Of a stretch of DNA of 42,010 nucleotides, positions 16,285 through 20,682 are shown in pieces. This DNA is from Candidatus Hermodarchaeota archaeon (GTDB lineage: Archaea; Asgardarchaeota; Lokiarchaeia; Sigyniarchaeales; SOKP01). The notes below the pieces were generated by a model. The model was given only the letters and a program-made list of their open reading frames with translations. It ran no database searches and was not told the origin of the DNA. The first letter of the stretch is position 1, and each line of letters starts with the position of its first letter. Position numbers and translations under genes: made by a program. The stretch is from the NCBI GenBank assembly GCA_048885525.1, contig JBHLLP010000031.1, positions 1-42,010 of the forward strand, written 5' to 3'.

Positions 16285-17655
16285 ATGTCCGAAAATAATA
16301 GAATTCGAACCTATTCTTTAAAAGATAAGTTGATTTGGGGTATAGCACAATTTGGTACTTCAATAATTCAAGGGGTATTCGCTACTACTACAGTTATATT
16401 TTATCATGTCTATTTAGCATTGGATCCTTTTTATATCGGTATTGCAGCTACCATATATGCTATTTGGAATGCATTAAATGATCCGATTTTTGGGTATATC
16501 TCTGATAGAACGCGATCAAAGCTAGGACGTCGAATTCCTTTTATGAGGTTTACTGCTCCTTTTCTTGCTATAACATTTATTATATTTTGGCTAGTACCTA
16601 TAAATTTGCCTGATTTTTCCACCTTTTTATGGATGTTAATTTTAATGTCATTGTATGACACATGTTTTACAATTATTGGGTTAGTATATGCAGCTTTATT
16701 GCCAGAACTTTCAGAAGAAGATCAAGTTAGAGGACAATTACAACAATTCTCATCTTTATTTTACTTAATAGGAGTAATTTTCGGGTTTTTCATTCCTGAG
16801 ATTGTTAGACCTGAAGTTGGGGAGACCAATCTAACTACCTTTTATGTTGGTATGGTATTAGTTGGTATTATTGGAGCAGCATGTATAGTTATAACAACAT
16901 ATAGATTTAAGGAACGTCCAGAATTCACCGTTGTAGACAAACCTTTAGGGCTCAAAGCCTCAATTAAATACACCTTTAAAAGTAAAGCATTTTTGATAGT
17001 GACAGCAGCCAATTTTATGTCTATCTTATTTCAACAAATTCTTTTAAGCTATATGTTCTATTTAGCTGATTATGTAATGGAAGTATCAACTCTTATTTTA
17101 TTAGCTGCTTTAATTCTTGGACTAATAGTTGGCGTATTTTTTACGAATACACTTTCTAAAAAATTTGGAGTTGTTCACGCAAATCAAATCCATTTAGGTT
17201 TTGGAGCGATATTTCTGATACTTCTACCGTTTGTACCAGAATTTTTAATTTATCTATGCTTATTTATCGGAGGAATGGGATTAGCAGGACCATTAGTATT
17301 AACCAACGTTCTTTACGGTCAAATTGCTGATGAGGATGAAATAAAATCTGGAGTTCGAAGAGAGGCAGCATTTTTTGGCACAAATGCAATGCTCACTAAA
17401 CCTGCTCAATCTGTTGCTATTGCAATAGGTCCCTGGTTATTAGCTATAGCTGGATTTTTAACAGAGCAAGTTTCTCAGAGCCTTCGGGTTCAGATCATGA
17501 TAAAAATTATTATAGGGTTAATACCAGGTGTCGCAATGCTAATAGGTGTTATGATTCTTTTATGGTACCCCCTTACAGGAGATTATTTAGAAGAAGTTCA
17601 AAGAAAAGTTTTAGAAATGCATGCTGATAAACATGCAAAGCTAGAAAATACTTAA
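16285..17655 (+). CDS. GPH/MelB-like (MFS_2) sugar:cation symporter
   Basis: WNALNDPIFGYISDRTRSKLGRRIPF and IADEDEIKSGVRREAAFFG. Confidence 0.9.
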   Translation: MSENNRIRTYSLKDKLIWGIAQFGTSIIQGVFATTTVIFYHVYLALDPFYIGIAATIYAIWNALNDPIFGYISDRTRSKLGRRIPFMRFTAPFLAITFIIFWLVPINLPDFSTFLWMLILMSLYDTCFTIIGLVYAALLPELSEEDQVRGQLQQFSSLFYLIGVIFGFFIPEIVRPEVGETNLTTFYVGMVLVGIIGAACIVITTYRFKERPEFTVVDKPLGLKASIKYTFKSKAFLIVTAANFMSILFQQILLSYMFYLADYVMEVSTLILLAALILGLIVGVFFTNTLSKKFGVVHANQIHLGFGAIFLILLPFVPEFLIYLCLFIGGMGLAGPLVLTNVLYGQIADEDEIKSGVRREAAFFGTNAMLTKPAQSVAIAIGPWLLAIAGFLTEQVSQSLRVQIMIKIIIGLIPGVAMLIGVMILLWYPLTGDYLEEVQRKVLEMHADKHAKLENT

Positions 17656-17670
17656 ATTTTAATTCAACTT

Positions 17671-18570
17671 TTAATTTTTTTCTTTATTATTATTGTTTGA
17701 AAATTGATTTACATCAAATTTAATTCTCTCACCTGTATCTACCAACCTTCTCATTGGCTGTTTCTTAGTTTCTTCAATCGCATTTTGAGTAGGCTGATAT
17801 CTTTCAGCAGGATTTCCAATATAAATCCAGTTTGGGTCTAAAATTTGATTAATATGGGTAACCGTCCATACTCCTAAAGTTGCTCCCTTTCCAATTATTG
17901 TACCAGGGGAAACAATCGAATTTGCTCCTAAAACTACATGATCACCGACTATAACTTTTTTTAATAAAAAGTAATCAATATTCTCTATTCTAATAATAGT
18001 ACTCGAAAAAATTTGAGCGCCTTGTCCAATCATAATATTATTCCCATATTCAATAAATTCAACATCGCTCCAGCCATCAAACATAGTACTTTTAAAATCT
18101 GCGTTAATGTCACACATCTTAAAAGCAAAATTGTTAACCCATGGAAAACAGAAATTATTCCATATTAAGAAAATGAATTTTTTCACAACTACTCTCAGGC
18201 AGAAATAGGAATAGTCGTTATTCTTTTGGTCAATTTTGAAGAGACCCTCCTTTGGTTTATGAATTAATTTTAGTATAACTAAACATAATTTACCTAATAG
18301 CAAACTAATAAGAATATAGGATCCCCACCATGCTAAAATATCTATAAAGAACAACAATATTCTCCAATTAAAGAGATTTGAATCCATGGCAAAACTAAAA
18401 AAAGTTAGTATCATTACTGTAGGCATTACTATTGAAAGAATATGTAATATTAAATAAAGTAAAGAAGCAGAAAAAGTCCATTTAAATGCATTTGTTGTTA
18501 GAGGGATTTTTGTAATATCAATAGAATAATTATCAATCTTATTGACTGAAATTTCACTATTCTCCGTCAT
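17671..18570 (-). CDS. Membrane protein with one left-handed beta-helix (hexapeptide) acyltransferase-like domain
   Basis: Two TM helices, KPKEG linker, IEYGNNIMIGQGA...VIVGDHVVLGANSIVSPGTIIGKGATLG...YIGNPA. SD GGAGGTGA lies 2 nt before ATG 18570, inside the upstream gene. Confidence 0.85.
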   Translation of the reverse strand: MTENSEISVNKIDNYSIDITKIPLTTNAFKWTFSASLLYLILHILSIVMPTVMILTFFSFAMDSNLFNWRILLFFIDILAWWGSYILISLLLGKLCLVILKLIHKPKEGLFKIDQKNNDYSYFCLRVVVKKFIFLIWNNFCFPWVNNFAFKMCDINADFKSTMFDGWSDVEFIEYGNNIMIGQGAQIFSSTIIRIENIDYFLLKKVIVGDHVVLGANSIVSPGTIIGKGATLGVWTVTHINQILDPNWIYIGNPAERYQPTQNAIEETKKQPMRRLVDTGERIKFDVNQFSNNNNKEKN

Positions 18571-20089
18571 ATTCACCTCCAGTAAATTTCATAATTTCTT
18601 CTTGACTCAGTTTCTTTGCAGGAAATCGTCCATATATACCATTTTTTCCTAATTGATCATATTTTATTGTGGCACACATTGGTAATATTGTAGAATTATC
18701 TTCCATCTTGAGTCCAGGTAACGCCCCATTTGATAAACTAAAAACACAACTATTCCCAATATCTGCTCCAAAAAAAGTTAGATTTTCTTCTCCGTAAACC
18801 CCATCAACTAAATGGTTGGATATATGTGAAAAAGTTCCAACGTAGCAATCTCTACCTAAATTAATATGACTATGAAAAAATGTATCTTCAAATACAGTCC
18901 CTTTTCCAATTTTGTTCGAACCTATAAATCGTAATTCCCAATTAATAAGCCAAGGAAAGGGAGAACGAATAAATGCAAAAATTGGATATTTAAATAAGAA
19001 AGATCTAAAATGATAATAATCCAAAGCCTTAGATGTTTCGTCTAAATTCCGATCAAATACTCCTTGAACATGTCCTCTTTTTTCTGTCATTTTGTAAAAC
19101 CATCTAGTAAAGAGAGCCACAAAAAATAAATGTATTAGGTATAGACTAATAAAGATTAAAGGGGTAAGGAATAGAATTGTAATTACGTTTGGATCTAAGA
19201 GTAAATTTAAAGAAAAAGTAGTTGAGAGCAAATTTGGGACTAAAATTCCAAATAAAAAGATAAAAAATAAAAAACCCGGTAAAATAAAAGAAAATCCAAT
19301 TATAATTATTCCAGCGACTAAATAGAAGTGAAAAGGAACAGATAATTCTTTTGCATGTGCACTTAAATCTTCTTTATTGCATACACTGATTAGATCCATA
19401 TTAAAGATATGACCTTCGAGTTGATTTTTCTTTTTAATTATTTCTGTTTCCTCTATCTTTATTGCAGGAGCACCCCTGTAAATAGAATTTGGTTCCAATC
19501 GTTGATTAATTTTTGTCATAGCAATTGCATCTAGTACTGTATTAGACTCTATAATTGTACCTGGTAAGACGATTGAATGAGCGCCTACAATAACATGGTC
19601 TCTTATTGATACTTTTTTCATAATCAATTTGTCTTTGATGATAATATTAGAAATAACAAAACTACCTTGACCAATTTTAACATTTTTTCCTAATTCAATA
19701 AATTCGCAATCAATCCATCCCTCATGCAATGAATTGGAGAATGAAGTTTTTACACCTAGTAATTTCAAGATTAAAACTTCAAGAAAAGGTAATGACAATT
19801 GTCGTGCCAACCAAATTGGCCATTTTCTTACAACTGCTCTTAGACTCCAATAACAATAGTCTTTATCAATTTTATTTCTTAGGAAGATCCCTTCCTTAGG
19901 TTTATGCATGATATTAATAAATACCAAGAAGATCTTTGCGATAAGAGTAGCACTTATTATCAAAAATATTTCAGCTAAGAAAAAAGCGAATGGAAAAAGT
20001 ATAAAAAATATTAAATTAAGAATAGGAAAGAATTGCCAGAAATACCATAGCCATAACAAAGATGGTTGAGCACTTAAAATAATAATCAA
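18557..20089 (-). CDS. Membrane protein with two TM-hairpin plus left-handed beta-helix repeats
   Basis: Repeat 1: KPKEG...IELGKNVKIGQGS...VIVGAHSIVLPGTII...YRGAPA. Repeat 2: KIGKGTV...LGRDCYVG...SNHLVDG...YGRFPA. The frame is open upstream to 20182. Confidence 0.85.
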   Translation of the reverse strand: MIIILSAQPSLLWLWYFWQFFPILNLIFFILFPFAFFLAEIFLIISATLIAKIFLVFINIMHKPKEGIFLRNKIDKDYCYWSLRAVVRKWPIWLARQLSLPFLEVLILKLLGVKTSFSNSLHEGWIDCEFIELGKNVKIGQGSFVISNIIIKDKLIMKKVSIRDHVIVGAHSIVLPGTIIESNTVLDAIAMTKINQRLEPNSIYRGAPAIKIEETEIIKKKNQLEGHIFNMDLISVCNKEDLSAHAKELSVPFHFYLVAGIIIIGFSFILPGFLFFIFLFGILVPNLLSTTFSLNLLLDPNVITILFLTPLIFISLYLIHLFFVALFTRWFYKMTEKRGHVQGVFDRNLDETSKALDYYHFRSFLFKYPIFAFIRSPFPWLINWELRFIGSNKIGKGTVFEDTFFHSHINLGRDCYVGTFSHISNHLVDGVYGEENLTFFGADIGNSCVFSLSNGALPGLKMEDNSTILPMCATIKYDQLGKNGIYGRFPAKKLSQEEIMKFTGGEYDGE

Positions 20090-20325
20090 AAAATAAAATA
20101 TCAGATATCGTTTTTTAGCAAGAACATTTGTAGTTCTTGGTCCAACTCTTAATGATGATGGAATTGAAATTCTAAAATCACTTTAATTTATCTTATTTTA
20201 AAGCTAAAATATATCAAATTCAGCTAGTAAATTTTTATATAAAAGAATAAATTGGTTTAAATTATTTATTTTTATCCATTTAGAATTATGAGCTTATGAA
20301 GTCAATTTAGGTCATAAAAAATTAA

Positions 20326-20682
20326 CTATTCTATGGTGAAATCTTTAATCATTGAAACTTTTTTGTCAGTATCAATAGTAATGGCAATAAGATTTACTTC
20401 TTCTTCATCTTCTGTTTCTGGATCCATCATAACAAAATAAAATGTATTCCCCTCCGTGTCATATCCAACTTCCATTTCACCACAATCATCTGGTATTATC
20501 TCTTTAATATTTTTAGGAGCATTTTCTTTCAAGATCTCATAGATAGCATCTTCAAGTTTTTTCTGACTTGCTCTAATTTTTTTAATATTTGAGAAATCAA
20601 ATTGTCCCATTGATTCTTGAGCTTTAGAGTTTAACTCATTCCACTCCTGAAACATTTCTTTCAATTTAGGTATTGAAGCCAT
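20326..20682 (-). CDS. Hypothetical protein (acidic C-terminal half)
   Basis: 118-aa ORF with ATG start; no motif recognised. Confidence 0.7.
   Translation of the reverse strand: MASIPKLKEMFQEWNELNSKAQESMGQFDFSNIKKIRASQKKLEDAIYEILKENAPKNIKEIIPDDCGEMEVGYDTEGNTFYFVMMDPETEDEEEVNLIAITIDTDKKVSMIKDFTIE

Follow-up and report, generated by a model that had tools for sequence, protein, structure and literature searches.

Can the membrane-embedded end of a Pls- or PosA-type synthetase exist without the synthetase? This question is raised by two overlapping genes in a 42,010-nucleotide stretch of DNA from a Candidatus Hermodarchaeota archaeon (contig JBHLLP010000031.1 of assembly GCA_048885525.1), the whole of which we call the window. 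A reading made earlier from the letters of the window (hereafter the sequence-only reading) had proposed that the two genes encode a split, stand-alone, Pls-like module, in which three units, each with a transmembrane (TM) hairpin and a left-handed beta-helix (LbH), assemble as a pseudo-trimer with one catalytic site and carry out acyl transfer, aminoacyl transfer or polymerisation at the membrane. To our knowledge, the only LbH pseudo-trimers so far described from membranes are those at the polymerising end of Pls/PosA-type synthetases, a part whose structure is unsolved, and our literature search found no account of stand-alone or Asgard versions of the module. We find that the system is a split, heterotrimeric version of the Pls kind of membrane LbH module, free of non-ribosomal peptide synthetase (NRPS) parts, and that its architecture and evolution are well supported and unusual.

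Two genes encode three homologous membrane-anchored units

The two genes, which we call a-b and c, lie head to tail on the minus strand (Table 1). The 537-residue product of the first contains units a and b, and the second protein contains unit c; each unit has a TM hairpin, a strand, two helices and an LbH. BLASTP, hhalign, Pfam, fold searches and AlphaFold2 (AF2) models all agree on this 2+1 arrangement, which the sequence-only reading had put forward. By sequence and profile comparison, a, b and c are homologous over their whole length: a and c are 40% identical in BLASTP (E value (E) 1e-37), and hhalign pairs a with c at E 5e-50, a with b at 4e-16 and b with c at 3e-11. The motif KPKEG, already noted as common to a and c, follows the second TM helix (TM2) in both; unit b reads KRGHVQG there, and its linker is strongly conserved (DRN, YYH, KYP, SPFPW). 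The AF2 model of the a-b protein has helices at residues 20-45 and 53-88 and the LbH at 150-241 in unit a, and helices at 280-315 and 327-365 and the LbH at 420-514 in unit b. For unit c, the ranges in Table 1 come from the sequence itself and from comparison with the model of P0246, a natural fusion of all three units. More than 200 Asgard homologues were found for the a-b protein, at 56-84% identity, and 214 for the unit c protein at E <= 1e-20.

The units contain the hexapeptide-repeat LbH that marks the hexapeptide acyltransferase superfamily. Against the Pfam family Hexapep (PF00132, cut-off 27 bits), the a-b protein (P0001) scores 28.6 bits and the c protein (P0002) 23.6 bits, just under the cut-off; P0002 also scores 26.6 against Hexapep_2. 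Fold searches matched LbH acyltransferases and gamma-carbonic anhydrase (gamma-CA)-like proteins only, with a Foldseek probability of 1.00 and VIA Z scores of up to 13.9 to LbH acetyltransferases. The best matches were MAT-type enzymes, with Z scores of 13.8-13.9 over 145-149 residues, and these alignments include the helices that precede the LbH. Among the matches listed by sequence and fold searches of the PDB, all were generic LbH matches, and no chain spanned the whole architecture. Basic residues, read from the sequence, flank the cytoplasmic ends of the TM hairpins, before the first TM helix (TM1) and after TM2 (KKRY, HKPKEG), and we therefore place the LbH domains in the cytoplasm.

Linkage, fusions and models point to one a, one b and one c per complex

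If the three units work together, their genes would be expected to stay together, and the sequence-only reading had named linkage in related genomes as a check of its proposal. In 15/15 related genomes that we fetched, a-b and c are direct neighbours, and they remain so down to 46-51% identity, where the remaining synteny of the window is gone. The host genome (3.58 Mb, 99.3% complete) holds further sets in other arrangements. Writing a solidus between neighbouring genes and a hyphen between units in one chain, these are two b/c/a triads, two b-c fusions followed by one a, a c-like/a-like pair and an orphan b, which brings the genome to 5 a, 6 b and 6 c units. One of the b-c fusions (C27 12157-13977) has no a gene of its own. 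The b/c/a triads recur in other genomes, and b-c/a pairs were found in at least 13 loci. There are also natural a-b-c fusions: P0055 (808 amino acids (aa), N-terminally truncated) and P0246 (797 aa, Promethearchaeota), the latter as an identical protein on two contigs from different NCBI metagenome-assembled genomes (MAGs). Every fusion state adds up to one a, one b and one c.

The AF2 model of the a-b protein, built from a 70-sequence alignment, has a mean confidence (pLDDT) of 85.2 and a predicted template-modelling score (pTM) of 0.85, and that of the whole 797 residues of P0246 has values of 84.6 and 0.86. The input for P0246 was an alignment of colinear a-b, b-c and a-b-c proteins only, because MAFFT stacked c-only sequences onto unit a. 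Independently placed units could not reach such pTM values, and the models therefore describe a single compact body. Taken together, the linkage, the fusions, the pTM values and the trimeric nature of LbH enzymes lead us to infer one a/b/c pseudo-trimer per complex. The sequence-only reading had reached the same arrangement for its two proteins, with one His-bearing unit, and the 15/15 linkage, the a-b, b-c and a-b-c fusions and the pTM of 0.85-0.86 support it.

A conserved histidine in unit b

As the sequence-only reading had seen, a histidine motif is found in the middle unit only. The aligned column reads SNI in a (Ile), SNH in b (His) and SST in c (Ser/Thr), and the catalytic-position His of LbH acyltransferases is present in b but not in a or c. 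This His, in the form SNH or TDH, is kept in at least 90% of b-type units across three paralogue groups (it is H457 of P0246), which agrees with the conservation that had been proposed as a check. A Glu one turn earlier and the aromatic-rich linker are likewise kept across the b paralogue groups; the remaining His of the window-type b (HSH, SH) are not kept generally across these groups. Of the invariant polar residues in the a-b protein, most belong to unit b. We take the b His to sit where MAT/GAT-type enzymes carry their catalytic His, and in the bacterial relatives described below its counterpart in the alignment is the LLPHA His of the middle unit. Because the His is present in b alone and most of the invariant polar residues lie there, the simplest reading is that the complex would have a single active site, on unit b.

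Relation to Pls and PosA

We next asked how close the system is to the terminal domain of Pls and PosA, described by the profile TIGR02353. This profile is the top NCBIfam match of P0001 (E 1.6e-13, 49.9 bits); P0002 scores 27.8 bits, and the a-b-c fusions P0055 and P0246 score 83.8 and 54.3 bits. The curated cut-off is 423.1 bits, and no Asgard protein scored reaches this whole-protein threshold (28-84 bits vs 423). Unit a alone scores 41.9 bits over profile positions 103-223, and the matches of units a and c alike fall in C1 (profile positions of about 77-234); unit b scanned alone gave no match at E <= 1e-4. A colinear mapping of a, b and c onto C1, C2 and C3 was therefore rejected: a and c both fall on C1, b on no part at E <= 1e-4, and neither hhalign nor the tree pairs them.

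The alignments do extend past the LbH. In BLASTP, unit a aligns with P0123 through TM2, linker and LbH at 25% identity (E 2e-11), and unit b aligns with it at full length (E 1e-3). In hhalign, the alignment of unit a with the bacterial units (E 1e-17 to 1e-21) spans TM2 and the linker, and these units have in common a linker motif after TM2, P-x-x-G-x-F/Y ... C-Y-x-W-x-L. Judged from these alignments, homology to Pls/PosA is real and goes beyond the generic LbH, but at the level of the unit only. P0123 itself was the only protein returned by a search for longer homologues, and it served as a Pls-like comparator only. This 2311-aa protein, recorded under the plant Oxalis oulophora, has amine-oxidase-like, FAAL-type adenylation, carrier and catalase-related regions, and also three Pls-like TM and LbH regions (TIGR02353 178 bits); either it is a Pls-like enzyme of a eukaryote, or the record may be contaminated.

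The terminal domain of PosA has been modelled with AlphaFold/RoseTTAFold as six bent membrane helices, in which each TM pair leads into a strand and two core helices, and three five-turn LbH packed with approximate three-fold symmetry; no experimental structure is reported (PMC10522769). The secondary structure of the units in our AF2 models agrees with this description. Three tandem units of a TM pair and an acetyltransferase-like domain, with six TM segments, are present in the Asgard system, split 2+1 over two genes. Adenylation (A) and thiolation (T) domains are absent: P0001 and P0002 carry Hexapep-type Pfam domains only, and no AMP-binding or PP-binding domain was found in the neighbouring open reading frames (ORFs) that were scanned, which is what the sequence-only reading had reported. 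Because it lacks A and T domains and stays below the profile cut-off, both of which define the Pls/PosA family, the system should not be filed there. The kinship once proposed thus survives in part. The top NCBIfam match and its extension through TM2 and linker speak for it; the scores (50-84 bits vs 423), the lack of colinearity and a triplication that looks independent do not.

Bacterial relatives and distribution

An exhaustive phmmer search with P0055 against 1.84 billion representatives returned only 568 proteins at E <= 1e-3. The sources that we looked up are Asgard MAGs or unclassified archaea (Promethearchaeota, Lokiarchaeota, Helarchaeota), except for some bacterial proteins, which are single chains of 650-690 aa with three units and without A or T domains, from Planctomycetales, Omnitrophota and Elusimicrobiota MAGs (Table 1). 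The module is thus stand-alone, as had been suggested, in that it lacks A and T domains, but it is not exclusive to archaea.

The bacterial relatives score 157-184 bits against TIGR02353, their middle unit always keeps its His (LLPHA), and their units are nearly equivalent to one another (E 1e-54 to 1e-61 among B1, B2 and B3). In a quick maximum-likelihood tree of the units, which has long branches, the bacterial units form one clade (support 99), the Asgard b units another (support 99) and a and c together a third (support 97), with c nested in a. From the profile comparisons and this tree we read the triplication as independent: the Asgard heterotrimer seems to have arisen by its own duplications, separately from the bacterial triplication, and the two branches seem to have arrived convergently at a trio in which one unit bears the His.

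The genomic context is informative for one bacterial relative. In a Planctomycetales MAG (L062 7971-16407), it is upstream of genes for a GT1 glycosyltransferase, a GMC oxidoreductase, a short-chain dehydrogenase/reductase (SDR) and a sugar-1-phosphate nucleotidyltransferase. Together with the SDR fusion P0370, this cluster hints at sugar or glycolipid chemistry, such as acylation, for the bacterial branch. Unlike that locus, neither the window nor the paralogue loci that we inspected have a GT1, GMC, SDR or nucleotidyltransferase context, and the hint carries over only weakly to the Asgard proteins.

To map the distribution of the system, we searched 150 other genomes across the phylum with unit c at E <= 1e-10. 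Matches were found throughout the window's family (25/25 genomes) and in both genomes from a sister family (2/2) of that order; two other families gave weak matches only, and the rest of the sample gave none. The system is lineage-specific and expanded in one order. A tblastn search of plasmids with P0001 gave zero matches.

Gene boundaries and a probable non-canonical start codon

Genes a-b and c share 14 nt (18557-18570), and the Shine-Dalgarno (SD) sequence of c lies inside the a-b gene, as the sequence-only reading had described. ATG 18570 is the start of c in the ESM Atlas and in the called protein P0124; the GTG start at 18576 in the automatic ORF listing falls within the SD GGAGGTGA. 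Translational coupling of a-b and c across the overlap is probable.

The start of a-b is less usual. It had been put at 20182, but this position is merely the first codon after an in-frame stop, the upstream limit of the open frame, and is no start codon. The first ATG, GTG or TTG in the frame is TTG 20089, from which the 510-aa form (P0001) is obtained. Full-length a-b homologues begin MSIPSS(I/V)REGPRTTN, and the window encodes a matching peptide from ATT 20170; a-type paralogues in the same genome start MSVPSSLKVGP with an ATG at the equivalent place. Since homologues and paralogues share the N-terminus encoded from ATT 20170, the a-b product is most likely 537 aa long, and the 510-aa length given earlier holds only for a start at the TTG.

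To see whether the codon is conserved, we compared the window with loci L013-L027 where the position was readable (15 loci, window included). In 15/15, SIP(S/A)S or STPSS is preceded by an ATT, ATC or ATA codon (AUH in the transcript). In 11 of the 15, no ATG, GTG or TTG occurs in frame between the AUH codon and the in-frame stop that lies 1-5 codons upstream of it. All 15 loci have a GTGA(T) motif that starts 9-11 nt before the AUH codon: in 12 of them it is out of frame, at 10-11 nt, and in L022-L024 it is in frame, at 9 nt. Over the 25 codons that follow, differences number 1018 at third positions vs 536 and 248 at the other two, and codon differences are 743 synonymous vs 511 non-synonymous; these codons evolve as coding sequence. 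The comparison points to initiation of a-b at a conserved AUH codon, whereas c has a strong SD and an ATG. A conserved AUU/AUC/AUA start would be a rare, testable case of non-canonical initiation in archaea.

A gene for an acidic protein lies upstream of a-b. It is present upstream of the gene pair in 8/15 related loci and belongs to no Pfam family; it could be a partner or merely conserved synteny.

Table 1. Coordinates of the gene pair, its units and motifs in the window, with related loci and proteins elsewhere
Feature	Position or accession	Strand	Remarks
a-b gene	18557..20170	-	537 aa from ATT 20170, or 510 aa from TTG 20089; stop 18557-18559
c gene	17671..18570	-	299 aa from ATG 18570; encodes unit c
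Unit a	19370..20170	-	residues 1-267; TM 20036-20113 and 19907-20014; KPKEG linker; LbH ~19448-19723
Unit b	18560..19369	-	residues 268-537; TM 19226-19333 and 19076-19192; LbH ~18629-18913
Unit c	17671..18570	-	TM ~18385-18486 and ~18259-18366; KPKEG linker; LbH ~17791-18081
His453 codon CAT, SNH motif of unit b	18812..18814	-	putative catalytic base
SD of gene c	18573-18580	-	GGAGGTGA, read from sequence; within 3' end of a-b gene
Probable initiation codon ATT of a-b gene	20168..20170	-	position conserved as ATT/ATC/ATA
GTGAT, SD-like motif	20177..20181	-	6 nt upstream of ATT; presumed SD role
118-aa acidic protein	20326..20682	-	upstream of a-b gene, same strand; membership uncertain
Paralogous LbH-unit loci L009-L012, host genome (G000)	C27 8858-30351; C24 28792-30411; C44 6018-6818		about five more sets
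Bacterial three-unit relatives	P0313; P0338 (Planctomycetales); its 71%-identical Omnitrophota relative; P0365 (Elusimicrobiota); P0370 (N-terminal SDR)

Proposed function and alternatives

What might such a complex transfer? The sequence-only reading had listed a carrier protein among the possible donors, but the host genome, 99.3% complete, has no match to PF00550 (PP-binding) or to PF01648 (the ACPS-type phosphopantetheinyl transferase, PPTase), and a carrier-tethered donor as in Pls is therefore unlikely. The same genome has 19 AMP-binding (acyl-activating) genes, and the closest solved folds are coenzyme A (CoA)-dependent acyltransferases of the MAT/QdtC/AntD type (Z 12-14). Given these folds, the AMP-binding enzymes, the lack of carrier and PPTase and the cytoplasmic LbH, we favour transfer from acyl-CoA, which would be the likeliest donor. 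In the mechanism that we propose, the 1:1 complex of the a-b and c proteins would comprise three non-identical units, each anchored by a TM hairpin and bearing a cytoplasmic, MAT-like LbH. On a bundle of six membrane helices, the three LbH would form a pseudo-trimer, the arrangement modelled for the terminal domain of PosA/Pls. The sole active site would form at the interface of b and a neighbour, b alone keeping the catalytic-position His and a long conserved loop, and a and c would be structural or substrate-binding partners. A CoA thioester would donate its acyl group to an acceptor on the cytoplasmic side of the membrane, which might be a lipid, a glycan linked to a lipid, or a polymer that is being made for export, and the several paralogous triads of a genome may each serve different substrates. 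We hold this reading, acyl-CoA-dependent transfer to an acceptor at the inner membrane face by triads that differ in substrate, with moderate confidence. Several points weigh against it: the acyl-CoA donor is argued by elimination; the three-fold packing is drawn from pTM values and from analogy; no neighbour in the window and its 15 relatives, or beside orthologues of the orphan b, is conserved enough to name a substrate; and the LbH fold also occurs in non-acyltransferases that are among our fold matches (gamma-CAs, dynactin p27, eIF2B).

The system could instead be a Pls-like polymerase that acts in trans, iteratively condensing aminoacyl or acyl thioesters or aminoacyl-tRNA from an enzyme encoded elsewhere and extruding a homopolymer through the TM bundle. 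Such a polymerase would explain the unit-level homology and the architecture shared with the polymerising domain of Pls/PosA, as well as the rank of TIGR02353 among the NCBIfam matches of the a-b protein, and the AMP-binding enzymes of the genome could activate its monomers. On the other hand, neither a carrier domain nor a PPTase was matched in the genome, no A-domain gene is conserved beside any triad, the TIGR02353 scores are 5-9x under the cut-off without C1-C3 colinearity, and the one bacterial stand-alone relative whose neighbours are informative belongs to a sugar-nucleotide/glycosyltransferase cluster rather than an amino-acid cluster. We consider a polymerase in trans unlikely, and nothing came to light in support of the polymerising role that the sequence-only reading had entertained.

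Two further alternatives concern the active site and the assembly. The complex might be non-catalytic or no acyltransferase at all, a membrane scaffold or an enzyme with a gamma-CA-like metal site in b (HSH...SH...NH). Gamma-CA and CA-like LbH, including the module of complex I, do appear among the sequence and fold matches, and the window-type b has four conserved His in 21 residues (three invariant, one at least 90%). Three of the four, however, are lost in other b paralogue groups, P0246 reading AKE...NVLTDH, so that, where gamma-CAs have three conserved metal-ligand His, only the SNH/TDH His is kept across b groups; the spacing of the His in the window-type b presumably also differs from that of gamma-CA ligands, and the best and longest fold matches are MAT-type acetyltransferases. 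This reading we judge improbable. It might also be that the units form separate homotrimers, with a3 and b3 side by side from three a-b chains and c3 alone, and that linkage reflects a common pathway. Solved LbH acyltransferases are homotrimers, and a and c are close paralogues, as homotrimers would have it; but the monomer models put the units in one confident body (pTM 0.85-0.86), the fusions always sum to a single copy of each unit, the three units occur at close to 1:1:1 within a genome, and the units of Pls/PosA and of the bacterial single chains are modelled as one trimer. Separate homotrimers seem to us very improbable.

Neighbouring genes

An MFS_2 (GPH-type) transporter gene at 16285-17655 (+) is convergent with gene c. 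The host genome has 20 MFS_2 genes, three of them within 5 kb of an LbH-unit locus. We rejected MFS_2 as a partner: it adjoins the pair in 4/16 loci only (the window and its 15 relatives), is absent at the window position from genomes of the same genus, and is absent beside orphan-b orthologues. At the orphan-b locus itself (L012, G000:C44 1745-6818), the genes that come after b on its strand are those of an AMP-binding enzyme, a PIG-L-type deacetylase (identified by eye, not by domain scan) and an MFS_2 transporter, a run that resembles an acyl-remodelling operon. The AMP-binding and PIG-L genes were rejected as a general partner, being conserved within the genus only.

Significance and comparison with known systems

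What is new about the module is that it can stand alone and be split into separate subunits, that its units have diverged in role, with b as the putative catalytic unit and the other two as non-catalytic partners, and that it has expanded in one Asgard order to about five or six sets per genome. The module was found in all 27 genomes sampled from the two families of that order. The system offers a smaller, genetically dissected model of the Pls-type module, for instance as to which unit is catalytic, and it flags an abundant, lineage-specific family of membrane enzymes in the closest known prokaryotic relatives of eukaryotes. A bolder proposal, which we regard as unlikely, is that these are Asgard-specific, independently evolved, NRPS-free LbH machines of Lokiarchaeia-type archaea, acting as template-independent polymer synthases or as acyl-CoA-dependent acyltransferases on membrane lipids or lipoglycans. 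If this were true, that chemistry would bear on the archaeal/bacterial lipid divide and on eukaryogenesis.

Among known systems, Pls and PosA are like the Asgard triads in having three units, each made of a TM pair followed by a strand, two helices and a five-turn LbH, with six TM segments in total, and in the linker after TM2, P-x-x-G-x-F/Y ... C/Y-Y-x-W-x-L. Unlike Pls and PosA, the Asgard proteins have no A or T domain and the host genome has no match to a carrier protein; their units are spread over two genes (three in paralogues) and have diverged into three types, and the sets are archaeal and number about five or six per genome. With the bacterial three-unit relatives, the Asgard system shares its stand-alone nature without A or T domains, its three TM-hairpin and LbH units and its one His unit. 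It differs from these single chains of near-equal units in that its own units fall in clades of their own, with b strongly derived.

The MAT/GAT/YvoF-type and sugar-nucleotide LbH acyltransferases (3srt, 3ect, QdtC 3fs8, AntD 3vbi) resemble the units in fold, with Z scores of 12-14 over 104-149 residues, and for the MAT-type 3ect and 3srt the alignment takes in the helices that precede the LbH; among the profile matches, NF058585 (YvoF) ranks first or second. These enzymes are soluble homotrimers with three active sites, unlike the Asgard system with its TM hairpin per unit, its heterotrimeric make-up and its one His unit. The gamma-CA/CA-like module on the membrane arm of plant and protist complex I, chains of which appear among our sequence and fold matches, is likewise a diverged LbH heterotrimer on a membrane complex, with some sites degenerate. 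Its subunits lack such a TM hairpin and a MAT-like linker and have metal ligands, and the resemblance to the Asgard system is one of analogy only.

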